Part shown: piece after piece, positions 19,254 to 31,395 of the stretch | Position numbering within the stretch: position 1 is the first letter of the stretch | Layout of the letters: the number at the start of each line of letters is the position of its first letter | From: an uncultured Sulfuricurvum sp. | GTDB taxonomy: Bacteria; Campylobacterota; Campylobacteria; Campylobacterales; Sulfurimonadaceae | Length of the DNA stretch: 64,000 nucleotides | Assembly (NCBI GenBank): GCA_903844635.1 | Contig: CAIMUF010000052.1 | Span: 840 to 64,839, forward strand | Direction of reading: 5' to 3' | Notes under the pieces: generated by a model | What the model was told of the DNA's origin: nothing | Databases searched by the model: none | The model's input: the letters and a program-made list of their open reading frames with translations, nothing else | Made by a program: the position numbers and the translations under genes

Positions 19254-20115
19254 AATTCTCGTTATGGGTTCAAATGGACAGCTTGGAAGCGAATTGCAAG
19301 CCATTCACACTCTTTATCCCCAGCACGATTTTACCTTTGCCGATCGTAACACACTGGATTTAGCCAATCTCTGTAAACTGGAAGATTATTTTGAAGATAG
19401 GACATTTGATGCCATCATCAACTGTGCCGCTTACACCGCTGTGGACAAAGCCGAATCCGACGAAGAACTTGCCAACACGATCAATCATCGTGCCGTATCC
19501 TTGCTCGCAAAAATTGCCAAAAAGAAAGATATTGCACTCATTCACGTTTCAACCGACTATGTCTTTGACGGCAAAAATCACCGTCCTTACCTCGAAACCG
19601 ACCACACCGATCCGCAAGGGGTTTACGGACGAACTAAACGTGATGGTGAGAACGCCATTTTAGACGTTGCACCCAAAAACACACTCATCATTCGTACGTC
19701 TTGGGTCTATTCGTCCTTTGGAGCTAACTTTGCAAAAACCATGCTTCGATTAGGTAAAGAACGAGATTCACTTGGGGTAATCTTCGATCAAGTCGGAACT
19801 CCAACCTACGCGCGGGATTTAGCCAAAGCAATTTTAGATATGCTTCCACAAATCAACACTACAACACCTGAGATTTATCACTACAGCAACGAAGGTGCCA
19901 TCAGCTGGTATGATTTTGCTCACGCCATATTCGAACTCTCCGATATCAAATGTCAGGTCAATCCCATCACCATCGATCAATACCCAACACCAGCAACACG
20001 CCCCCATTACAGCCTGCTCAACAAAGCAAAAATAAAAAACGACTTTGAAATCATTATCCCTTATTGGAGAGATGCTCTCAAAGAATGTTTAAAAGAATTA
20101 GGAGAAATAAAATGA
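19246..20115 (+). CDS. rfbD: dTDP-4-dehydrorhamnose reductase
   Basis: GSNGQLG, AAYTAVDKAE, STDYVFDG, YGRTK. Confidence 0.95.
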   Translation: MSKILVMGSNGQLGSELQAIHTLYPQHDFTFADRNTLDLANLCKLEDYFEDRTFDAIINCAAYTAVDKAESDEELANTINHRAVSLLAKIAKKKDIALIHVSTDYVFDGKNHRPYLETDHTDPQGVYGRTKRDGENAILDVAPKNTLIIRTSWVYSSFGANFAKTMLRLGKERDSLGVIFDQVGTPTYARDLAKAILDMLPQINTTTPEIYHYSNEGAISWYDFAHAIFELSDIKCQVNPITIDQYPTPATRPHYSLLNKAKIKNDFEIIIPYWRDALKECLKELGEIK

Positions 20116-21170
20116 ACACTATTTTAGTCACCGGATGCGCCGGATTTATCGGGAGCAACTTCGTCCCTTACTTTTTAGACAAATATCCAGAAGTTCGTCT
20201 CATTAACCTAGACCTTCTCACTTATGCCGGCGATATGGCAAATCTCTCTGATGCACCACAAAGCGATCGTCATATCTTCGTCCAAGGAGACATTTGTGAC
20301 CGTTCTCTTGTCGAGTCACTTTTTACCCAATACGACATTCGTGGCGTGATTCATTTCGCGGCTGAGAGTCACGTCGATAACAGCATCAAAAACCCAGGTG
20401 TCTTTGTCCAAACCAACGTCAATGGAAGTTTTATCCTTATCGATGTTGCCTACAAAGCATGGATGGAAAAACCGTTCACCTACCGTCATTCCGGACTAGA
20501 TCCGGAATCCACTCCCCGTTTCCACCATATCAGCACCGATGAAGTCTACGGAACGCTAGGAGAAACAGGACTCTTTACTGAAGAGACATCTTATGCTCCT
20601 AACAGCCCTTACAGTGCATCCAAAGCAGGAAGCGATATGATCGTCCGCAGTTACCACCATACCTACGGCATGAACACTGTCATCACTAACTGTTCGAACA
20701 ACTATGGTCCAAAACAGCATAACGAAAAACTAATCCCGACCGTTATCCGCAAAGCACTAGCCGGCGAGAATATCCCTGTCTACGGTGACGGTAAAAACAT
20801 CCGTGATTGGCTCTATGTCCTCGACCACTGTAAGGGGATTGATTTGGTTTATCACAACGGAAGATCAGGGGAAGTCTATAATATCGGTGGACGCAATGAG
20901 CGCAACAACAATCAAATCGTTGAACGTATCTGCAGCTTGCTCGATGAGATGCACCCTCGTCATCCTGAACTTGATTCAGGATCTACCCCATCTTATAAAG
21001 ACCTTATCACCTACGTCGAAGACCGAGCAGGACACGACCGTCGTTATGCTATCGATGCTACCAAACTCGAAACAGAACTGGGATGGAAAGCTCAAGAGAC
21101 GTTTGATACGGGGATTTTGAAAACGATCGAGTGGTATCTAAAAAAATACAGTAATAATAACGATGACTAA
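20112..21170 (+). CDS. rfbB: dTDP-glucose 4,6-dehydratase carrying two REP-encoded peptide inserts
   Basis: [44 protein letters not shown]. Confidence 0.95.
   Translation: MNTILVTGCAGFIGSNFVPYFLDKYPEVRLINLDLLTYAGDMANLSDAPQSDRHIFVQGDICDRSLVESLFTQYDIRGVIHFAAESHVDNSIKNPGVFVQTNVNGSFILIDVAYKAWMEKPFTYRHSGLDPESTPRFHHISTDEVYGTLGETGLFTEETSYAPNSPYSASKAGSDMIVRSYHHTYGMNTVITNCSNNYGPKQHNEKLIPTVIRKALAGENIPVYGDGKNIRDWLYVLDHCKGIDLVYHNGRSGEVYNIGGRNERNNNQIVERICSLLDEMHPRHPELDSGSTPSYKDLITYVEDRAGHDRRYAIDATKLETELGWKAQETFDTGILKTIEWYLKKYSNNNDD
20484..20516 (+). repeat. In-frame REP palindrome inside rfbB (RHSGLDPESTP)
   Basis: CGTC-ATTCCGGA-CTAGA-TCCGGAAT-CC, perfect 8-bp stem. Confidence 0.85.
20958..20990 (+). 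repeat. In-frame REP palindrome inside rfbB (RHPELDSGSTP)
   Basis: CGTC-ATCCTGAA-CTTGA-TTCAGGAT-CT, perfect 8-bp stem. Confidence 0.85.
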
Positions 21171-21185
21171 AAATAGAAGTTACTG

Positions 21186-21416
21186 ATGAAAAATATGACT
21201 GTAGCAGATATAATACAAAAGCTAAATCAATTACCGCAGGATGCTTTAGTATTAGTCGATGGATATGAAGGCGGATTAGATGCAGTTATAGATACTAAAG
21301 TAATCCATATTCTTTACGATGAAAAAAAAGAGTGGTACTATGGTCCATATGAAGACTCTGAAAATTCCACTCAAGTAGGTGTTTATCTTTTAAGTACGCG
21401 AGGTAAGAGACATTGA
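21186..21416 (+). CDS. Small hypothetical protein
   Basis: 76-aa ORF coupled to the downstream MNT gene; MTVADIIQKLNQLPQD...VDGYEGG. Confidence 0.65.
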   Translation: MKNMTVADIIQKLNQLPQDALVLVDGYEGGLDAVIDTKVIHILYDEKKEWYYGPYEDSENSTQVGVYLLSTRGKRH

Positions 21417-21741
21417 TTGACATTGAAACACTTAAAGCCGAAATTATAGAACGATTAAAACCACTTAATCCCCAAAAAATCATACTCTTTGGAAGCTATG
21501 CGTATGGAACTCCTACAGAAGATAGCGATATAGATTTATACGTAGTGACTAATGATGAATTTATGCCTCAAAACTGGAAAGAGAAGAGTGAAGTTCATTT
21601 AAAAGTCGCAAAAGCTATAGAAGAAATAATGAAAAAATTTCCCACAGATTTAATAACTCACACTAAAGCTATGCATGAGAAATTTAAAGAAATGGATAGT
21701 ATGTTCAGTAGAAAAATATTAAATGAAGGGATCGTTATACG

Positions 21742-21745
<4 letters not shown>
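21413..21745 (+). CDS. Minimal nucleotidyltransferase (MNT antitoxin-like)
   Basis: LFGSYAYGTPTEDSDIDL (GS-x10-DxD). Confidence 0.88.
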
Positions 21746-22309
<564 letters not shown>

Positions 22310-22441: not shown

Positions 22442-23863
22442 ATGACCAATATTATTCTGTGTGGCGGAAGCGGTACACGCCTTTGGCCGATTAGTCGAAC
22501 CCTTATGCCCAAGCAATTTGTAAAACTTTTTGGTGACACCCCAGGGCAGTCTCTCTTGCAACGCAATTCACCTCCCAAATCTCTTTTTCAACTTACCGTA
22601 GAGCGTAATATTCCTCTTTGCAGCGAACAATTCATTGTCTCTAATGCCGAGCAGTATTTTTTAGCTTTGGATCAACTTGGCGAAATGAATGCGCAAAGTA
22701 ATCACTACCTTCTTGAGCCTGTTGGCAGAAATACGGCTCCGGCGATTGCATTGGCTTGTATGGCACTTGATCCCGAAGAGATCGTTCTTGTAACACCCTC
22801 CGATCATCTCATAAAAAATCAACAATCTTATGCCCAAGCAGTTGAACGCGCGAAAGAGCTGGCATCGCAAGATTATCTCGTAACCTTCGGAATCACTCCA
22901 GCATTTGCTGAAACCGGATTTGGCTATATCGAAGCAGACAAAGAGAATGGCGAAGAAGTTGTAAGTTTTAAAGAAAAACCTGATTTTAATACTGCAACCC
23001 AGTACCTCAATGCCGGAAATTATTATTGGAACAGCGGGATGTTTTGCTTTAAAGCCGGAGTATTTTTAGAAGAGTTACGTGAACTTTCACCGCAGGTGTT
23101 CGAAACCTGTGCAGTAGCTTTTAAAAACGCAACGACCAACGGCATGATCCGTATAGCACATGACGATATGCTTTATATTCCCGAAGACAGTATTGACTAT
23201 GCCGTGATGGAAAAAAGCAATCGCGTCAAAGTCGTAGTAGCCAGCGATATAGAGTGGAGCGACGTAGGGAGTTTCGATGCTCTCTATGAAGAGCTGCCAA
23301 AAGATGCCAACGGCAACACAGTATGCGATAAGCACATCAGTATCGATAGTAAAAACAATCTCGTTCTCTGTGAAGGGCGTAAAATTGCAACCATTGACGT
23401 CGAAGATTTGATCATTGTTGATACAGGTGATGCTTTGCTTGTTTCGAAAAAAGGCTCATCTCAAAAAGTTAAAAACGTGGTCGCAGAACTTAAAAATCGT
23501 AATACCGAGCTTCATAACATCCACCTCACCGCTCACCGTCCATGGGGAACGTATACGATTCTAGAAGACACTCCCGGATATAAGATCAAGAGGATCGTTG
23601 TGCAGCCAGGAAAGCGCTTAAGTTTACAAAAACACTTTCACCGCAGCGAGCATTGGATTGTCGTTAGCGGTACAGCGACAGTTACTGTCGGGGATCAAAC
23701 GCAAATCATCCGCCCCAATGAGTCCACCTATATCAAAATGGGTGAGATCCATCGTCTCGCCAATGATGGGAAAATTCCAGTAGTTCTTATCGAAGCACAA
23801 GTCGGAGAATATACAGGCGAAGATGATATCGTTCGAATTAGTGATGAGTACAACCGCGCATGA
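22442..23863 (+). CDS. manC: Mannose-1-phosphate guanylyltransferase/mannose-6-phosphate isomerase
   Basis: GGSGTRLWP, EPVGRNTAPAI, WSDVGS, RPWG and C-terminal cupin. Confidence 0.95.
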   Translation: MTNIILCGGSGTRLWPISRTLMPKQFVKLFGDTPGQSLLQRNSPPKSLFQLTVERNIPLCSEQFIVSNAEQYFLALDQLGEMNAQSNHYLLEPVGRNTAPAIALACMALDPEEIVLVTPSDHLIKNQQSYAQAVERAKELASQDYLVTFGITPAFAETGFGYIEADKENGEEVVSFKEKPDFNTATQYLNAGNYYWNSGMFCFKAGVFLEELRELSPQVFETCAVAFKNATTNGMIRIAHDDMLYIPEDSIDYAVMEKSNRVKVVVASDIEWSDVGSFDALYEELPKDANGNTVCDKHISIDSKNNLVLCEGRKIATIDVEDLIIVDTGDALLVSKKGSSQKVKNVVAELKNRNTELHNIHLTAHRPWGTYTILEDTPGYKIKRIVVQPGKRLSLQKHFHRSEHWIVVSGTATVTVGDQTQIIRPNESTYIKMGEIHRLANDGKIPVVLIEAQVGEYTGEDDIVRISDEYNRA

Positions 23864-24651
23864 ACCAATTAAAAGCTATTTGGGCGTATCGTTATTTTAT
23901 TATCAGCTCTATCAAAACGGAATTTCGAAGTCGTTTTGCACGTAGCAGTTTAGGCGGTGTCTGGATGGTATTACATCCGCTAGCACAAGTGGCTATTTAC
24001 GCCCTCGTACTCTCAGCCGTCCTTGCTGCCAAACTTCCCGGTATTGACAACCAGTATGCCTATGCTATTTATCTGATGGCTGGGACACTTGGTTGGTCAC
24101 TGTTTGCTGAGGTGTTTGGACGAAGCTTGGGAGTATTTGTTGATAATGGCAATTTACTCAAAAAAATGGCATTTCCAAAAATCGCACTCCCTCTCATCGT
24201 CACGGGCAGTGCATTGGTCAACAACCTTCTCCTCTTTGGAGCAGTATTGGTCGTTTTTGGGATTCTTGGGCACATGCCTACTCTTATGCTCTTGTGGCTG
24301 CCTGTTCTAATTGCTGTAACGCTCGCATTGGCACTCGGGCTAGGTTTAGCGTTAGGTATTATCAATGTTTTTGTGCGCGATATCGGTCAGATCGTCCCGA
24401 TCATTTTACAATTTTGGTTTTGGCTCACCCCTGTCGTGTATGTCTCTACGATGATTCCTGCAAAATATCATGCGCTATTGATGCTCAATCCCATGAGCGG
24501 TATCGTCATGGGGTATCAAAACATCCTTGTATACAACAAAGCCCCAGATGTAAGCACGCTTCTTTATCCGGCTACAATCGCCATTGTAGCACTGTCGCTT
24601 GCCCTCTTTATGTATTTTCGTGCGAATGAAGAAATGGCGGATGCGTTATGA
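23860..24651 (+). CDS. wzm: O-antigen ABC transporter permease Wzm
   Basis: FRSRFARSSLGGVW, RDIGQIVP, WLTPVVY, LNPM. Confidence 0.92.
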   Translation: MNQLKAIWAYRYFIISSIKTEFRSRFARSSLGGVWMVLHPLAQVAIYALVLSAVLAAKLPGIDNQYAYAIYLMAGTLGWSLFAEVFGRSLGVFVDNGNLLKKMAFPKIALPLIVTGSALVNNLLLFGAVLVVFGILGHMPTLMLLWLPVLIAVTLALALGLGLALGIINVFVRDIGQIVPIILQFWFWLTPVVYVSTMIPAKYHALLMLNPMSGIVMGYQNILVYNKAPDVSTLLYPATIAIVALSLALFMYFRANEEMADAL

Positions 24652-24652
24652 T

Positions 24653-25153
24653 AATTTTTAATTTTGAATGCTTAATGTTGAATCAAAACGTAAGAATGAG
24701 CAAGTAGCATGAAGCAAGAAAATATTATCTTAGATAAATCATTTGCTTTTGCAGTGAGAGTTGTAAAACTCTATAAATATTTGTGTGATGAAAAACAAGA
24801 GTATGTTTTATCCAAACAGTTGTTGAGAAGCGGCACCTCCATCGGAGCCAATATCAATGAAGCTCAAGCAGCGCAGAGTACGAACGATTTTATCACCAAA
24901 ATGAGTATCGCAAGCAAAGAAGCGAGAGAAAGCAGATACTGGATAGATCTTTTAATTCAGACAGATTTTCTTGATTCCAGTGAACAACACACTCAAACAT
25001 TGCGAGGCGATATTGATGAGCTTATCAAAATGTTAACATCCATCATTAAAACAACGCAAGAAAGAAATAAAAAATGAATTCAAAATTAAAGATTGACCAA
25101 CGGGAATGCCCTGGGGTTCAGAATTCAGAATTAAACATTCAAAATTCAAAATT
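24653..25153. mobile_element. Four-helix-bundle gene cassette bounded by 31-bp heptamer-based inverted repeats
   Basis: Left arm 24653-24683 vs right arm 25123-25153 match 27/31; flanking (T)GAT direct repeat; excision restores ATG ATT TCG CCT (MISPVLE) overlapping the wzm stop. Confidence 0.65.
24709..25077 (+). CDS. Four helix bundle protein (TIGR02436 / 23S IVS-protein / bAvd-like)
   Basis: DKSFAFAVRVVKLY, SKQLLRSGTSIGANINEA, KMSIASKEARESRYW. Confidence 0.9.
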   Translation: MKQENIILDKSFAFAVRVVKLYKYLCDEKQEYVLSKQLLRSGTSIGANINEAQAAQSTNDFITKMSIASKEARESRYWIDLLIQTDFLDSSEQHTQTLRGDIDELIKMLTSIIKTTQERNKK

Positions 25154-26378
25154 GATTTCGCCTGTCCTCGAAATCAGTAACATCGGCAAAGCCTATCGTA
25201 ACTACGGTAGTGAGCTATGGCGTATCCTCTCGTGGTTCGGACTGCGTTTTAAACCCGTTCATGAGACATGGACACTCCAAAATATCAGCTTTAACATCGC
25301 ACCGGGTGAAGCGATCGGTGTTGTTGGGCAAAACGGTGCAGGCAAAAGCACCTTGCTCAAAATCATTACAGGCACTCTCAAGCCAAGTACTGGCAGTGTA
25401 ACGGTGCACGGTAAAATCGCCGCAATCCTAGAGCTGGGGATGGGATTTCACCCCGACCTTACAGGGCGACAAAATGCCTACCATTCTGCAGGACTTATGG
25501 GCTATACAAGCGCACAAATCGATGCAGTAATCGATCAAATTGAAGCATTTGCAGAGGTCGGAGAGTACTTCGATCAGCCGGTACGTACTTATAGTAGTGG
25601 TATGCAGATGCGTGTAGCATTTGCAACCGTGACCGCCTATCGTCCAGAGATTCTAATTGTCGATGAAGCTATGTCTGTCGGGGATGCCTATTTCCAGCAC
25701 AAAAGCTTTGACCGTATCCGACAGTTCCAGAGCGCGGGAACAACTCTCTTGCTTGTATCTCACGATCGCGGTGCTATTCAGGCGATCTGTGATCGTGCTA
25801 TTTTATTAGAGCAAGGGAAAGTGATCCGAGACGGTGAGCCCGAAGAAGTGATGGATTTTTACAATGCTCTCATCGCGGACAAGGAAAACAGCAAAATTGA
25901 GCAAGTAACACTTGACAATGGAAGAGTCCAGACGATCTCCGGAACAGGCGAAGCCAAAGTCGAAGATATTGGACTCTACAATGACAAAGGCGAAAAAGTA
26001 GAGTTTGTCGGTGTTGGTGATCCAGTAGAGTTACGAGTGAAAGTGAAAATATATCAAGATATTCCATTGCTCGTATTAGGATACGGAATTAAAGATCGCC
26101 TTGGTCAGGTGATGTACGGAACGAATACATGGCTGATGAAGCAAGTATTAGAAGATTTGAAAGCAGGTAATTTGTATAACTTTATAATTACATTTCCCAT
26201 CAATATTGGGGTTGGTAATTATTCAATTCAAACTGCTCTGCATAAACACGATACCCATTTATCTGTCAATTATGAATGGAAAGACTTAGCATTAGTTTTC
26301 AATGTTGTTAATATTGACAAGACTGCTTTTGTTGGATCAACATGGCACGAACCAAAAATAGAAGTTAAACTAATATGA
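25074..26378 (+). CDS. wzt: O-antigen ABC transporter ATPase Wzt with C-terminal carbohydrate-binding domain
   Basis: GQNGAGKST, YSSGMQMR, ILIVDE, C-terminal beta-sandwich; first 26-27 aa derive from the repeat arm. Confidence 0.93.
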   Translation: MNSKLKIDQRECPGVQNSELNIQNSKLISPVLEISNIGKAYRNYGSELWRILSWFGLRFKPVHETWTLQNISFNIAPGEAIGVVGQNGAGKSTLLKIITGTLKPSTGSVTVHGKIAAILELGMGFHPDLTGRQNAYHSAGLMGYTSAQIDAVIDQIEAFAEVGEYFDQPVRTYSSGMQMRVAFATVTAYRPEILIVDEAMSVGDAYFQHKSFDRIRQFQSAGTTLLLVSHDRGAIQAICDRAILLEQGKVIRDGEPEEVMDFYNALIADKENSKIEQVTLDNGRVQTISGTGEAKVEDIGLYNDKGEKVEFVGVGDPVELRVKVKIYQDIPLLVLGYGIKDRLGQVMYGTNTWLMKQVLEDLKAGNLYNFIITFPINIGVGNYSIQTALHKHDTHLSVNYEWKDLALVFNVVNIDKTAFVGSTWHEPKIEVKLI

Positions 26379-27682
26379 TACATAACAATTTTTACCGAGC
26401 TTTTGAAGAGAAATATTATGCTCCTCGGACAGTAATTAAAGAACTTCGAAAGCAATATTTATCCTTTGTTGAACAACTCATCCAGCATTATCCATCTGGT
26501 CAAACATATGATTTAGGTTGTGGTCGTGGTGAATGGCTTGAATTAATGCAGGAGCTTCAATTAACCCCCTATGGTGTTGATCTTGATGATGGCATGCTAC
26601 AAGGATGCAGAGACTTAGGATTGCCGGCTGAAAAAGGTGATGCGGTATCGTATCTTAAAACACTTGAATCGGAAAGTCACTTAGTGATTAGTGCATTTCA
26701 TGTTGTCGAACATATTTCATTTAGTGATTTGCAAGAAGTTGTCCAAGAAGCATTACGGGTTTTAAAGCCAGGCGGCTTGCTCATCATGGAAACACCTAAT
26801 CCTGAAAATATCAAGGTAGCCACGGCTAATTTTTATTTAGACCCGACACATGTTCGACCTATTCCGTCCCAATTACTCTCTTTTTTAACAGAACATTACG
26901 GTTTTGAACGGACAAAGATTCTCCGTCTTCAGGAATCACAAGAAGTACATCATACACTATCCATCACTCTTTCGCAGGTCATTAGTGGTGTGAGCCCAGA
27001 CTATGCAGTCATTGCCCAAAAACAAGCTAGTGGTGAGATCATGTCAAGCTTTAATGAGTTGTTTGATAAAGAATATGGTTTATCTTTAGAAATGTTAGCA
27101 GATAAATTTGAAAATCGTTTATTAAAAATCGAAACCCAAACTAATGAAGCAAACTCGAAAGCTGATAAAGCATACGCACAGGCTAGTGAAGCAAGCGTAC
27201 AAGCCAATGAAGCAAATTCTAGGGCAACCAAAGCAGAACAAAGTGCAAATAATGCATGGCAACATTATCACATGATCGCAAATAGTACTTCTTGGAAGAT
27301 GACCAAGTCATTGCGATTGGCAGGTAAATTTACAAGATGGTTAGTCTATGGCTCTTATCATTGGCTCACATTTTCACCGACCAGCAGACCGCGTAGAAGC
27401 ATTAAAAATTTAGTATTAAAAATGAAAAATTATATTAATTCAAACCCAAAATTAAAAATGAAAATTATTAGTATCTTAAATCGTTTTCCAAAACTGAAAG
27501 CTAGGCTTAAAAGAGTTAGTCAAGACAACTATTTTCTATCAGACAATTCAAAATTGACCGCATGGAATGCCCTTGGGTGCAAAAGTCAAAATTTAGAATT
27601 ATCGCACTTGTCTCCAGAAGCCAAAAAAATATACAATGATTTGAAATATGCGATAGAGCAAAAGCAAAAGGCATCAAAATGA
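26375..27682 (+). CDS. SAM-dependent methyltransferase with coiled coil (WbdD-like O-antigen terminator)
   Basis: DLGCGRGEWL, FHVVEH, ETPNPEN, LDPTH; Ala/Gln-rich coiled segment; follows wzt. Confidence 0.8.
   Translation: MIHNNFYRAFEEKYYAPRTVIKELRKQYLSFVEQLIQHYPSGQTYDLGCGRGEWLELMQELQLTPYGVDLDDGMLQGCRDLGLPAEKGDAVSYLKTLESESHLVISAFHVVEHISFSDLQEVVQEALRVLKPGGLLIMETPNPENIKVATANFYLDPTHVRPIPSQLLSFLTEHYGFERTKILRLQESQEVHHTLSITLSQVISGVSPDYAVIAQKQASGEIMSSFNELFDKEYGLSLEMLADKFENRLLKIETQTNEANSKADKAYAQASEASVQANEANSRATKAEQSANNAWQHYHMIANSTSWKMTKSLRLAGKFTRWLVYGSYHWLTFSPTSRPRRSIKNLVLKMKNYINSNPKLKMKIISILNRFPKLKARLKRVSQDNYFLSDNSKLTAWNALGCKSQNLELSHLSPEAKKIYNDLKYAIEQKQKASK
27541..27603 (+). repeat. Solo heptamer-arm element inserted in-frame near the methyltransferase C-terminus
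   Basis: Shares ATTGACC-N4-GGAATGCCCT-N-GGGT and heptads with 25078-25152; TATC direct repeats 63 bp apart. Confidence 0.7.
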
Positions 27683-30600
27683 GAATCGTCATAGACCTTC
27701 AAGGAGCCCAAACTGAAAGTCGCTTTAGAGGAATTGGTAGATATTCACTCTCACTGGCTAAAGCGATAATAAGAAATGCAGGCGATCATGAGATATGGCT
27801 GGTTCTTAATGGTGCATTTCCTGAAAGTGTTTTAGCATTTAGAGAAGAGTTTGAAGGGATGGTGTCTCAAGGGCGAATTAGAGTTTTTCAAGCTCCCCTT
27901 CCCGTAGCTGAACACGATCCTGCAAACTCAAACAGAGCAAGAGTCGCAGAGCTGATACGAGAGTATTTTATGGAGCAGCTCAACCCTGATGTTGTCCTAG
28001 TAATGAGTCTTTTTGAGGGGTATCTCGATGATGCAGTAACATCAGTAAGTCGATTTACATCGAGCTACAAAACAGCGGTAATACTGTATGATCTCATACC
28101 TTATATAGATGAAGAGAGATATTTACCCTCCAGCACGCAAAAAGAGTACTATCATAAAAAAATCAACTCACTCCAAAAAGCAGATATCCTTTTAGCTATC
28201 TCAGAGGCTTCTAAAATAGAGTGTGAGAATGTACTTCACATACCATCCGAAAAAGTTACGAACATTTCTACAGCAGTCGATGAGACCTTTGAGCCAAAAG
28301 AACTCTCAGCAGATGAAAAAAAGACCCTTTTTGCCAAATACGACATCACCAGAAAGATGGTGATGTACGCTCCAGGCGGTTTTGATATTCGTAAAAACTT
28401 TGAAAATCTTATCGTTGCTTATAGCGAACTACCCCAACTTTTACGAGACGATCATCAGCTAGTCATTGTTAGTAAGGTTCAAGAGGGCGATAAACTTCAC
28501 TTAGAAAATATCGCCAAAAATACAAGACTAAAAAAAGACGAACTCATCATCACAGGTTATGTGAGCGATGAAGAACTCATGGCGTTTTACAGCACATGTA
28601 CACTTTTTGTATTTGCTTCGCTTCATGAAGGGTTTGGATTGCCTACACTTGAAGCGATGGCTTGCGGGGCTGCGGTGATAGGCTCAAATACCACAAGCGT
28701 ACCTGAAGTAATAGGATATGAAAAAGCTCTTTTTGATCCGAAATCAGTGCATTCTATTACCGATAAAATTCAAGAAGTGCTCGAAAATAAACAATTTTTG
28801 AAAGAGCTTCAATCACATTCCTTGCAGCAATGTAAAAAGTTCTCATGGGACGAGAGTGCAAAAAGAGCAATAGCTTCAATGGTTAATCTGCAAACATCGG
28901 ACAAAACTACTTATAAAGACTCTACAAAAAGAAAACTTGCGTATTTCTCTCCACTTCCTCCACAACGAAGCGGCATTAGTGACTATAGCAAAGAGTTGTT
29001 ACCATACTTAAATGCTTATTATGACATTACATTGATCGTAAATAGCGATGCATGTGAGAATATTTTTAATGAGATGGAATTTGAGAAAAAAAATGTTGCT
29101 TGGTTTGAAAATAATATAAAGAGTTTTGACAGAATTTTATACCATATAGGGAATAACCCTTTTCATACACACATGCTAGATGTACTGAAGCAACATTCTG
29201 GGGTGGCAATGCTTCATGATTTCTTTTTGAGCAGTTTGTATGCTTACGAAGAGACTGTATTAGGACAGCAGGATTTTTGGAAAAAAGCTATTTTTGAATC
29301 TCACGGTTTTGCTGCTCTTAAAGATAGATGTATTTCATATGGTGAAGAAAATGCAAAGCAAAAATATCCTGCCAATATTGAGGTCATGCAGAATGCCAGA
29401 GGTTTGATTTTTCATTCGAATTATTCAAGACATTTGTTGAATCAATGGTATGGTGAGCACAATCAAGTCCGAATGTTTCAGGTACCTTTCTTGAAATATA
29501 TGCCAAATGGTTATGATAAACAAGAAATACGAAAATTAATGAGATACGATAAAAGTGATTTCATAGTGTGTTCATTCGGTTATTTAGATTCCACTAAACT
29601 AAATCATAAGCTTTTGGAAGCCTGGAGAACGTCGAAGCTTTCATCATTAGGAAACTGCAAACTCATTTTTGTTGGGGAAAATAATGATGGTGATTATGGA
29701 CAACAAATTTTAAAAACCATCCAAAAGAGTAAAAATATTATTATCACGGGATGGACGGACAGTGATACATACGCAAACTATTTAAAAATAGCTGATGCAG
29801 GGGTACAATTGCGTACTATGTCCAGAGGTGAAACATCGGCAGCTGTCCATGATTGTATGGCTTATGCTTTGGCAACCATTGTTAATGCAAATGGCTCTTT
29901 TGCTGACATCCCAAAAGATTCGGTGTATATGATAGAAGATGAATTTGAAATCAAAACTCTGGTTGAAGCCCTTGAAAAACTTTATGATAATGAAAACTTT
30001 CGGAAAGAGTTATCTCAAAAAGCTGCAAAAACTATCAAAGAGCAACATTCTCCAGAAGTCTGTGCAAAAATGTATTTTGAAGCAATAGAAGCTTCTTATC
30101 AAAAACACCCCGTAAATGATTTGATCTCAAGCATAGTTGATCTAAAAGAATTTCGCTCTATTGAAAATGATGAAACTAAGTTGTTACATATTTCTAAAGC
30201 AATATCGCGCACTGTAGAAGTCCCATGTAGACAAAAACAAATACTTGTAGATGTATCGGCTATTTGCAGAAACGATTTGAAAACAGGTATCGAAAGGGTT
30301 GTCAAAGCTCAGCTATTGGAATTAATAAAAAATCAACCTGCAGGATACCGAGTAGAACCAATATATCTGGCATATGAAAATGGACAATGGGTCTATAGGT
30401 ATGCCAGAGATTATGCTTTATCGCTTTTAGAAATACAAAATGTACAGATGCAAAATGAGTTAATAGATATGCACAACGGTGATGTATATTATTGTGCAGA
30501 TTTTTTTAGGGATGGCATTGCCCAAGCTATAAAACAGGGATTGTTTGCTGAGATGAAGATGCAAGGTATTCAGCTGAACTTTGCAGTTTATGACATTTTA

Positions 30601-31395
30601 CCAATCCTGCATCCGGAGTTTTTTCCAATAGGAACAAGTAAGCCTCACCATGTTTGGCTCGAAGCAATAGCATCTGTTTCTGCTAATCTGATATGTATTT
30701 CAAAATCTGTAGCGGATGAAGTAAAAAATATATTGAAAGAGCCTAAGCTCAAAATATCTTATAATCATTTGGGTGCAGATATAGAAAGTTCAATTCCATC
30801 AGCTGGACTACCCGATGATGTACAAACCTCGCTTGTTACGCTTAGATCAAAACCGACTTTTTTGTTGGTAGGGACAATTGAACCGCGAAAAGGACATTTA
30901 CAAGTGTTGGCAGCTTTTGAAAAACTGTGGAGCGAGGGTTGTGATCTAAACCTCGTCATCGTTGGAAATGAGGGTTGGAAACTTTTGCTTGAGAATGAAC
31001 GAAGAACAATTCCTCAAATAGTTTCAAAAATGAATGCTTTAAAAAGCGAGGCTAAATTCTTTTGGCTTGAAGGCATCAGCGATGAGTACTTAGAAAAAGT
31101 GTATGAAGCCTCTACTTGCCTTATCGCCGCCAGCGAAGGGGAAGGGTTTGGATTGCCGCTTATTGAGGCAGCTCAGCATAAATTGCCAATCATTGCAAGG
31201 GATATCCCCGTATTTCGTGAAGTGGCTGGTAAATATGCTTATTATTTTGAAAATAGTAACGATTCCTCTGTTTTAGCAAATGTTGTCATCTCTTGGCTTG
31301 AACTTTATAAAGATGATCGTCATCCAAAATCAGATGCTATGCCGTGGTTGACGTGGGAAGAGAGTGCAAAACAGTTATTGGGTTGTATAAAATGA
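27679..31395 (+). CDS. Multi-domain GT4 glycosyltransferase (WbdA-like polymerase)
   Basis: 1238 aa; three GT-B modules with EGFGLP (twice) and SRGETSAA motifs. Confidence 0.85.
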   Translation: MRIVIDLQGAQTESRFRGIGRYSLSLAKAIIRNAGDHEIWLVLNGAFPESVLAFREEFEGMVSQGRIRVFQAPLPVAEHDPANSNRARVAELIREYFMEQLNPDVVLVMSLFEGYLDDAVTSVSRFTSSYKTAVILYDLIPYIDEERYLPSSTQKEYYHKKINSLQKADILLAISEASKIECENVLHIPSEKVTNISTAVDETFEPKELSADEKKTLFAKYDITRKMVMYAPGGFDIRKNFENLIVAYSELPQLLRDDHQLVIVSKVQEGDKLHLENIAKNTRLKKDELIITGYVSDEELMAFYSTCTLFVFASLHEGFGLPTLEAMACGAAVIGSNTTSVPEVIGYEKALFDPKSVHSITDKIQEVLENKQFLKELQSHSLQQCKKFSWDESAKRAIASMVNLQTSDKTTYKDSTKRKLAYFSPLPPQRSGISDYSKELLPYLNAYYDITLIVNSDACENIFNEMEFEKKNVAWFENNIKSFDRILYHIGNNPFHTHMLDVLKQHSGVAMLHDFFLSSLYAYEETVLGQQDFWKKAIFESHGFAALKDRCISYGEENAKQKYPANIEVMQNARGLIFHSNYSRHLLNQWYGEHNQVRMFQVPFLKYMPNGYDKQEIRKLMRYDKSDFIVCSFGYLDSTKLNHKLLEAWRTSKLSSLGNCKLIFVGENNDGDYGQQILKTIQKSKNIIITGWTDSDTYANYLKIADAGVQLRTMSRGETSAAVHDCMAYALATIVNANGSFADIPKDSVYMIEDEFEIKTLVEALEKLYDNENFRKELSQKAAKTIKEQHSPEVCAKMYFEAIEASYQKHPVNDLISSIVDLKEFRSIENDETKLLHISKAISRTVEVPCRQKQILVDVSAICRNDLKTGIERVVKAQLLELIKNQPAGYRVEPIYLAYENGQWVYRYARDYALSLLEIQNVQMQNELIDMHNGDVYYCADFFRDGIAQAIKQGLFAEMKMQGIQLNFAVYDILPILHPEFFPIGTSKPHHVWLEAIASVSANLICISKSVADEVKNILKEPKLKISYNHLGADIESSIPSAGLPDDVQTSLVTLRSKPTFLLVGTIEPRKGHLQVLAAFEKLWSEGCDLNLVIVGNEGWKLLLENERRTIPQIVSKMNALKSEAKFFWLEGISDEYLEKVYEASTCLIAASEGEGFGLPLIEAAQHKLPIIARDIPVFREVAGKYAYYFENSNDSSVLANVVISWLELYKDDRHPKSDAMPWLTWEESAKQLLGCIK

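Follow-up and report, generated by a model that had tools for sequence, protein, structure and literature searches.

Intervening sequences of 23S rRNA genes are excised by RNase III and have long been suspected to be relics of a mobile element, a mobility that has been proposed but never demonstrated (PMC4990558). In Coxiella burnetii, the intervening sequence is located in helix 45, carries tandem heptamers in its stem and contains an S23p open reading frame (ORF), which is decaying in this species (Warrier et al. 2016, PMC4990558). Here, we describe a 504-bp cassette that carries a single four-helix-bundle (4HB) gene between inverted heptamer arrays and is located between wzm and wzt, two genes of a polysaccharide exporter, in a 64,000-nt stretch of DNA (hereafter referred to as the window) from an uncultured Sulfuricurvum sp. 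(contig CAIMUF010000052.1). In our judgement, it is probably a discrete cassette inserted into the ATGA overlap of the two genes, i.e. an operon relative of the ORF-bearing rRNA intervening sequences that is non-polar by its build, provides a restart for wzt and has spread mainly passively.

The cassette resembles the 23S rRNA intervening sequences in its size (~0.43–0.5 kb), its one ORF, which is sense-oriented and belongs to the same protein superfamily, its stem-capable terminal inverted repeats and its lack of a mobility enzyme. Tandem heptamers in the stem are a further feature shared with the Coxiella intervening sequence, although the unit sequence differs; in Coxiella, their number varies between strains. 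Unlike the rRNA intervening sequences, the cassette is located at the stop/start overlap of a protein-coding operon and not in an rRNA helix. It also differs from the Coxiella element in that its ORF belongs to another protein subfamily, with dN/dS values of 0.03–0.12 for window-type ORFs, and in that the frame of the downstream gene runs through the right arm. No rRNA was found in 20 related loci, and no rRNA genes were detectable with universal 16S/23S motifs in the metagenome-assembled genome (MAG) to which the window belongs. Because the location in rRNA is what defines those intervening sequences, the cassette is not a strict member of that class.

Heptameric arrays have also been described in intergenic DNA, namely GGGAATC arrays in Xanthomonas and GGGGAYT arrays in Nostoc, which occur singly or as convergent pairs (Rehm et al. 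2015, PMC4692102), and heptanucleotide elements of four and five units in Geobacter metallireducens (PMC2700814). The arrays of the window are similar to these in containing ~4–5 units of 7 nt, in being transcribed and located near stop/start codons, mostly between co-oriented ORFs, and in the frequent arrangement as inverted pairs capable of forming stem-loops. Unlike the intergenic arrays, they are A+T-rich, bracket a specific gene family and are present as one pair in the genome. The papers on intergenic arrays name no associated gene and read the repeats as G-quadruplexes or regulator sites (PMC4692102, PMC2700814).

The 4HB protein is related in fold and family to Avd, the accessory protein of diversity-generating retroelements (DGRs). 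Avd forms 4HB pentamers, which bind both nucleic acid and their partner enzyme, the reverse transcriptase. PF05635, the family of the cassette protein, is listed in the DGR/Avd context (PMC10053308). In contrast to the genes for DGR Avd proteins, the cassette gene stands alone between heptamer arms, with no template/variable repeats and no reverse transcriptase in the genome (no RVT_1 domain was detected anywhere in it); the locus is therefore not a DGR. Small size, terminal inverted repeats, a possible short flanking duplication and a location in transcribed intergenic DNA are shared with MITEs (miniature inverted-repeat transposable elements) and non-autonomous insertion sequences. Lacking a transposase and being single copy, the cassette is not a classical transposon or MITE; it differs from MITEs also in its conserved non-transposase ORF, degenerate tandem-heptamer arms and fixed orientation relative to the operon, and we know of no partner transposase for armed 4HB cassettes. 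Integron cassettes are likewise promoterless small genes in one orientation, stacked at one spot with imperfect structured repeats, as is the chain of 4HB, ORF6N, YhcG and KilA-N genes at the wzm/wzt junction described below. The latter, however, have repeats on both sides of the 4HB gene that are not attC-like, are linked by overlapping stop/start codons with reading through the repeat, and have extra cassettes flanked by a duplicated arm and target. Neither an integrase nor attI was seen, although no search aimed at integrases was made.

Full-text literature searches for the family names retrieved no paper in which such genes are described as armed operon cassettes. The present analysis adds one junction in its filled, empty and replaced forms, the discordance of synonymous divergence (dS) and the restart design. 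An explanation for the 23S rRNA intervening sequences and their S23p/4HB ORFs has been wanting since the early 1990s, as has one for the excess of intergenic heptamers, and the wzm/wzt locus joins these puzzles in an ordinary mRNA operon. It also provides natural controls, i.e. empty alleles, alleles in which other genes replace or join the cassette, and a strongly conserved protein. Questions on the ligand of the protein, the cutting of the hairpin and the tolerance of a 0.5-kb insert in a coupled exporter junction thereby become approachable in simple reporter systems.

Structure of the wzm/wzt cassette

The features of the locus are listed below with their positions in the window. For comparison, 26 metagenomic places and 80 genomic loci were read, and 80 elements with full flanks, representing 78 distinct proteins, were scored; L-numbers are the labels of these relatives' loci, genomic or metagenomic.

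23860–24651, + strand: wzm, ABC-2 permease of an O-antigen/polysaccharide exporter, 263 aa (PF01061, ABC2_membrane, E 5e-18), with the stop codon TGA at 24649–24651
24649–24652, + strand: left copy of TGAT, from direct reading; its TGA is the wzm stop
24653–24683, + strand: left arm, 4.4 AATKYTK heptamer units, inverted repeat (27/31) with period 7; TGA/TAA in two of three forward frames
24684–24708, + strand: spacer of 25 nt from the left arm to the 4HB gene, with the purine-rich stretch GAATGAGCAAG ~7–17 nt before the ATG
24709–25077, + strand: 4HB gene, 122 aa, PF05635/TIGR02436 ('23S rRNA intervening-sequence protein' family), from profile matches
25074–25076, + strand: start codon (ATG) of the extended wzt ORF; overlaps the 4HB gene stop as ATGA
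25078–25096, + strand: proximal right repeat ATTCAAAATTAAAGATTGA, both an inverted and a direct repeat; 25078–25094 pairs with 24653–24669 at 16/17 positions
25097–25116, + strand: G+C-rich 20-mer spacer CCAACGGGAATGCCCTGGGG between the two right arrays, from the sequence
25117–25153, + strand: distal right array, 37 nt, 5.3 TTCAAAA units (Tandem Repeats Finder, TRF), open in the wzt frame and encoding ...VQNSELNIQNSKL of Wzt
25153–25156, + strand: right copy of TGAT, from direct reading; the junction AAAATTGAYTTC recurs in L010 and L133
25155–26378, + strand: native wzt (ABC_tran ATPase and Wzt_C carbohydrate-binding domain, from domain matches), beginning ISPVLEISNIGKAY

The insert spans 24653–25156 (504 bp) and can be placed at five positions, its boundaries sliding by up to 4 nt. 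Its arms, 24653–24683 and 25123–25153, are 31 nt in length and complementary at 27 of 31 positions (87%), as compared with at most 21/31 for the best 31-mer pair in 300 flank shuffles and 400 random window places of the same geometry. Both arms have a lag-7 autocorrelation of 0.75–0.83, which gives a period of 7. An earlier note on this DNA, made without database searches, had given the same arms and their heptad build, a TGAT at either end (24649–24652 and 25153–25156) and a 4HB gene as the sole cargo; all of these were reproduced by the repeat search with its controls and autocorrelation, by direct reading, and by profile matches together with the finding of no other ORF in the cassette. The proximal right repeat (25078–25094) is additional to the arm pair of that note. 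The stretch GAATGAGCAAG is a possible ribosome-binding site for the 4HB gene. A module, TTGACCAACGGGAATGCCCT(G/T)GGGT, which is located between the two right arrays (window 25090–25120), was also found behind a KilA-N gene and its heptamers (L011:945–985), and the reverse-complement motif ACCCCAGGG occurs in L011/L012 within the flank to the left of the 4HB gene. No Rfam family matched within 24300–25500. As no promoter-like or terminator-like sites were found around the window cassette beyond the shuffle expectation, it is predicted to be embedded in the transcription of the host operon and expressed from it.

The 4HB protein matches PF05635 over profile positions 2–106 of 106 (E 8e-28; 97.2 bits, cut-off 33.8) and TIGR02436 (E 4e-32; 110.6 bits, cut-off 24), and its scores against other subfamily models, NCBIfam NF008911 and NF008912, are 37–43 bits, below the cut-offs of 124–137. 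The nearest solved structure is 2RLD (E 2.3e-36), and 2GSC was also matched (E 3.7e-5); five chains are deposited for each. No PADLOC model matched the protein, and a profile search of the window's genome identified this PF05635 gene only. The dN/dS values of the 4HB gene were 0.03–0.12 in the 6 of 10 pairs with estimable dS, the four pairs involving L029 being saturated. The same range applies to the window's gene when compared with those of its five closest relatives, for four of which dS was estimable. These values indicate strong purifying selection, on which ground we regard the protein as functional.

Empty and filled wzm/wzt junctions

In all 12 other Campylobacterales species with a Wzm orthologue (44–76% identity), wzm and wzt are adjacent. 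The start of wzt overlaps or abuts the wzm stop in 10 of these species, usually as ATGA or TAATG, and is located 8–11 nt before the stop in the other two; examples are CTATGATACAAG (MIQEPILEV) and TTATGATTAATATT (MINILEV). The sequence at empty sites is TATGAG|TTTACC or TATGAT, and the ATGA of the empty alleles is the overlap of the wzm stop with the wzt start. The metagenomic loci L128 (wzm 87% identical at the nucleotide level) and L129–132 (76%) are also empty, reading TATGAGTTTACC, with a Wzt that begins MSLPVLEVTNIGKAY (MSLPVLEV). Removal of the 504 bp from the window yields TTATGATTTCGCCTGTCCTCGAA, i.e. MISPVLEISNIGKAY (MISPVLE), which has the length and register of MSLPVLE in the empty alleles; the cassette-deleted junction reads TTATGATTTCG. 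Among 120 Wzt homologues, ~110 have M and 2–5 residues before (I/V)LEV, and ~10% have NSKL/NSEL-type extensions, such as MNSEFKIDNSKL and MPNSELTLTNSKFKIQNSEF, which are translated heptamers. For annotation, this means that approximately one-tenth of the retrieved Wzt homologues have repeat-encoded N-terminal extensions derived from such cassettes.

Judged from these alleles, the insert is a derived, precise insertion into the wzm/wzt ATGA overlap and not an ancestral part of the operon. An assembly artefact was rejected on the basis of the identical layout in independent assemblies (Logan, JGI, and ENA). The earlier note had taken the insert for a precise mobile unit or an mRNA-level intervening sequence and expected empty sites at related wzm-wzt junctions, orthologous Wzt proteins that do not natively start with MNSKLK and inverted heptamer arms at other 4HB genes. 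Because empty sites exist (the 12 species, L128, and L129–132), native Wzt lacks MNSKLK (~110 of the 120 homologues) and other 4HB genes are armed, the precise insert is borne out, as it is by the restoration of MISPVLE upon its removal; present-day mobility is not, given a single copy, no further arrays above chance and no reverse transcriptase in the genome.

TTATGAT/AATTTTTAAT forms the left junction in the window and in L009, L010 and L029. The right junction is AAAATT/GATTTCGCC in the window, L010 and L133, AAAATTA/GATAATACC in L009, AGAATTT/ATTCTAAATG in L029 and CATTA/CCATCTACC in L049. In the window, the TGAT pair is equally compatible with a 3–4-bp target duplication from a staggered cut, a 4-nt microhomology or chance. 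The start MLYDNTESVL, which is predicted to be ancestral for the L009-type junction, was absent among the 120 Wzt homologues.

By wzm identity, the empty L128 (87%) is closer to the window than three filled alleles (78–85%), which indicates gain, loss or exchange of cassettes relative to wzm. The dS values of the 4HB gene and wzm are 0.17 and 1.33, respectively, between L009 and L010, and 0.63 and 1.37, respectively, between the window and L009; between the window and L029, dS is saturated in the 4HB gene and 0.77 in wzm. These discordant values indicate that the cassette and its flanks have separate histories. L009 and L010 share a 98–100% identical tract that extends from the last 40 nt of wzm to approximately two-thirds into the 4HB gene, and this has the appearance of homologous recombination between related loci, not of cassette-precise exchange. 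In the window's lineage, spread or persistence would now be mainly passive, by homologous recombination between related polysaccharide loci.

Proposed translation through the cassette

The proposed build would make the cassette non-polar. The T/G-rich left arm would place stops in two of three frames right after the wzm stop, the 4HB gene would start by itself 57 nt after that stop, and the last 4HB codons with the ATGA would serve as a restart for wzt. The A/C-rich right arm, which is open in the wzt frame, would then add a 27-residue, heptamer-encoded N-terminal extension to Wzt, and translation of wzt would be coupled to that of the 4HB gene. The first 27 codons of the wzt ORF, counted from the ATG at 25074, do come from the right side of the cassette, and an in-frame TTG is present at 25152–25154. 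We infer that restart at the ATGA with the 27-residue extension is the most economical reading.

In most relatives, the upstream gene stops ~10 nt or less from the left arm. Of 54 relatives, 51 have a left arm with stop codons in two or more frames, and 35 have a right arm with no more than one closed frame. In 24 of 78 elements, the start of an ORF of 80 codons or more falls between −12 and +15 of the 4HB stop, in eight of them exactly as ATGA, and the downstream frame is open back to the 4HB stop in 19 of the 40 loci examined. An ATGA restart as in the window is present in L009, L010 and L013–20. In L064 and L078, PdxA starts with MKNNSTFNIQHSTLKKIAISIGD from an overlapping ATG 11 nt before the 4HB stop; the pdxJ/pdxA overlap in the window's own genome is empty (ATGTCAGCGCTAA; PdxA MSALKRIAISVGD). 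The idea that the arms act as frame adaptors, with the gain or loss of heptamers resetting the frame, was rejected, as the right-arm lengths differ by 6, 9 and 45 nt, none of which is a whole number of heptamers.

Other genes at the junction

The closest metagenomic relatives read, L133 (1594–2250), L134 and L135, have wzm genes that are 88% identical to that of the window at the nucleotide level and 95% at the amino acid level. In these loci, an ORF6N gene begins at the wzm ATGA and ends with AAAAAATGAATCTAGATCAAAATAATTCAAAATTGATTTC, with ATGA overlaps on both sides; there is no left arm and no 4HB gene, so that ORF6N replaces the latter yet keeps the right junction of the window, AATTCAAAATTGATTTC. 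In L010, wzm is followed by the 4HB gene, a right arm, a truncated DUF1016 gene, ORF6N, a second right array and a window-type junction. In L049 (1862–3050; Sulfuricurvum MAG, JAUYSQ010000286.1), the first 42 nt of wzt, located after the 4HB cassette, are fused in frame to YhcG (DUF1016/PDDEXK), and a second heptamer array and a complete wzt stand behind YhcG; the right arm and target are thus duplicated around YhcG, as would be expected from the single-crossover integration of a circle. A 5' fragment of wzt is also present behind the KilA-N gene of L011 and its array. ORF6N and YhcG correspond to the PADLOC defence-candidate families PDC-S05 and PDC-S02, respectively. Because the extra cassettes are flanked by duplicated arm and target sequences, their entry was presumably driven by homology, and the data suggest Campbell-type or homology-facilitated recombination via the arrays and adjacent host sequence. 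The heptamer arrays may in this way have turned into entry points for other small genes, such as ORF6N and YhcG.

Distribution of armed cassettes

Homologues of the 4HB protein number in the thousands at 72–97% identity, and most of the 78 distinct relatives are bracketed by inverted heptamer arrays. The mean arm alignment score was 37 for an element's own pair, 23 for cross-element pairs and 17 for shuffled arms, and the orientation of the heptamers relative to transcription is nearly constant. The heptamer unit differs between protein lineages, being AATTCAA-like in Campylobacterota, Francisella and Fangia, ACTCAAC/ACTAAAC in a Rheinheimera-Alishewanella-Thiomicrospira clade, CCTCATT in Clostridiales, TTCCATT in Gastranaerophilales and ATTGCGC in Oscillospiraceae. 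Sister proteins with one and the same unit occur in different phyla, i.e. L079 (Campylobacterales) with L085 (Desulfohalobiaceae), and L076 (Aeromonadales) with L086 (Desulfovibrionales). Two cassettes occupy consecutive operon junctions in L143 (373–2360), in the order manC, 4HB, gmd, 4HB and fcl; their proteins are 27% identical and their heptamer units are unrelated (ACTACAA-like and AATTTAA-like). Arms devoid of a gene, consisting of a left-type and a right-type array ~10–40 nt apart, were observed beside full cassettes at L029:2378–2500 and L021:2861–2935.

The cassettes recur at few sites, namely wzm/wzt, gmd/fcl (including Francisella), ugd/epimerase (including Thiomicrospira), PGM/epimerase, pdxJ/pdxA, the interior of yhcG and a position upstream of a beta-CASP gene; those at gmd/fcl, ugd/epimerase, pdxJ/pdxA and within yhcG occur in Campylobacterota and Gammaproteobacteria. 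Four site types (gmd/fcl, ugd/epimerase, yhcG-internal, and KilA-N/YhcG) are united in a single clade of the protein tree (support 96/88), and a gmd/fcl clade unites Francisella with Sulfurovum. The PF05635 family was found in 111 of 401 species and 42 of 96 genera of the order, with 1–9 copies that are often within 10–50 kb, and in 3 of 66 species of the window's genus. The diversity of sites in one clade, the sharing of units across phyla and the patchy distribution make historical relocation well supported from sequence comparison: the gene and its arms appear to be a unit that has repeatedly reached non-homologous junctions and crossed phyla. Several complete Campylobacterales genomes contain three to four PF05635 genes within 10–50 kb (G193:C1:737–747 kb, G108:C1:319–364 kb, G236:C1:1.68–1.73 Mb, G136:C1:967–1012 kb, and G074:C1:1.62–1.67 Mb), which suggests a hot region, presumably a surface-polysaccharide gene cluster.

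Alternative explanations

Most likely, the arms are arrays of putative sites for binding by a pentameric protein, or form a hairpin in single-stranded DNA or RNA, or both, and the 4HB protein may act on its own repeats. In the sense RNA, the left arm pairs with 25078–25094 in the minimum-free-energy fold, and 24653–24683 pairs with 25123–25153 in the centroid; the fold of the whole region is unremarkable (z = −1.3 for the sense strand and −2.1 for the antisense strand, which folds at least as well). Mismatches in the 78 arm pairs, read on the sense strand, lean towards G.U over A.C (51:34, p = 0.08). Within the AATTCAA family, own arms paired no better than foreign arms (39.5 versus 38.3, p = 0.28); the complementarity is therefore generic, i.e. 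that of two opposed arrays of one degenerate unit, and shows no fine covariation. Such a pattern is compatible with protein-binding sites in arrays or with a hairpin lacking an exact register, in RNA and single-stranded DNA alike. The arms might instead pair in the manC-wzm-wzt transcript as an intervening sequence at the RNA level, with RNase III cutting the stem and releasing the 4HB segment to leave separate wzm and wzt mRNAs. Such excision would involve the same DNA insertion and would be compatible with the explanation that we prefer; the layout is that of the Coxiella and Leptospira intervening sequences, in which RNase III cuts in a partly heptamer-built stem (PMC4990558), and both predicted folds, the lean towards G.U and the near-constant heptamer orientation point the same way. 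However, the wzt start at 25074 lies inside the loop and many relatives likewise have an in-frame restart that reads through the right arm, and neither the G.U ratio, which is not significant, nor the lack of own-arm preference nor the ordinary fold energy favours excision. Because a cut in either stem would separate the start codon from wzt, we consider RNA excision possible but unlikely as the main function.

The discrete insertion, whatever the role of its arms, could also be the work of an autonomous minimal element, in which the pentameric 4HB protein would recognize the arms and, with host factors, excise the cassette and insert it at stop/start overlaps; the approximately five heptamers per arm would match the pentamer, and a 3–4-bp target duplication (TGAT/GAT) would be expected. 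Consistent with this, TGAT flanks the insert, and the cassette of L009, whose wzt allele is different, has GAT at either end; several non-homologous junctions are occupied within one protein clade; the heptamer unit tracks the protein clade across phyla (L079/L085 and L076/L086); the two cassettes of L143, with 27% identical proteins, have entirely different heptamers; and arms of 4.4–5.3 units go with related solved structures of five chains. To our knowledge, however, the PF05635 family has no known catalytic residues and no nuclease or recombinase fold. There is one copy in the genome, the flanking repeat is inconsistent (AT in L029 and none in L049) and no near-identical cassettes were seen at different sites, four multi-contig identical proteins being always at one same site. 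An autonomous element is thus improbable in our estimation. A broader reading, which we put forward as a tentative idea, is that PF05635 pentamers and inverted heptamer arrays form one self-contained selfish system colonizing transcribed junctions, with rRNA helices as one kind of target and operon stop/start overlaps as another. The arrays would serve in it as cognate binding sites (approximately five 7-nt units per five subunits, with a lineage-specific unit), as a stop-rich left block and an open right restart linker that make the host gene behind translationally dependent, and as landing pads capturing defence-candidate genes (ORF6N, PDC-S05; YhcG, PDC-S02). If true, polysaccharide gene clusters would contain an integrase-free cassette platform akin to an integron. 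By far the least probable of the explanations is an ancestral wzm-4HB-wzt order with empty sites formed by deletion. The empty L128 (wzm 87% at the nucleotide level) is indeed nearer to the window than the filled L009 (83%) and L010 (78%), which implies loss or allele replacement at least once, but 12 species from several families and ~110 of the 120 Wzt homologues have the empty overlap, 63 of the 66 species in the genus lack the PF05635 family, and the Wzt extension consists of heptamer repeats, not of conserved protein sequence.

Several observations weigh against a discrete, non-polar cassette as we propose it. The recombinant tract of L009 and L010 stops inside the gene and not at the arms, and all wzm/wzt cassettes could come from one or few old insertions reshuffled by homologous recombination. 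Neither a recombinase nor a transposase nor a reverse transcriptase is present in the cassette, and RVT_1 is absent from the genome, in which the cassette is single copy and no other arm-like sequences or heptamer arrays were found above chance. The flanking repeat varies at the wzm/wzt junction, from TGAT in the window to GAT in L009, AT in L029 and none recognizable in L049. With respect to translation, the TTG at 25152 is a possible wzt start in place of the ATG at 25074, and the downstream frame is open back to the cassette stop in only about one-third to one-half of the relatives. Moreover, the contrast between stop-rich left arms and open right arms follows automatically from the orientation of the heptamers, selection for this asymmetry being something that we infer.

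Neighbouring genes in the window

Three kilobases upstream of the cassette, 150 nt from the 3' end of rfbB (dTDP-glucose 4,6-dehydratase) occur twice in direct orientation, at 21002–21151 and 22147–22296, with 89% identity between the copies. The complete rfbB spans 20064–21170, and the second copy is a 61-codon tail (ORF 22124–22309). The repeats bracket a 76-codon ORF and an MNT (nucleotidyltransferase, PADLOC PDC-S09)/HEPN pair (ORFs 21186–21416, 21413–21745, and 21742–22131). This site is a second insertion in the same polysaccharide cluster, with duplicated target sequence, and represents an event analogous to those at the wzm/wzt junction.

Directly behind wzt, at 26375–27682, a methyltransferase with a C-terminal alanine-zipper/coiled-coil region is encoded, followed by a 1238-residue multi-domain protein (27679–31395), which we take to be a glycosyltransferase from its sequence. 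Together with the Wzt_C domain, these two proteins make the locus look like an ABC-transporter-dependent O-antigen pathway with a WbdD-like methyl chain terminator.

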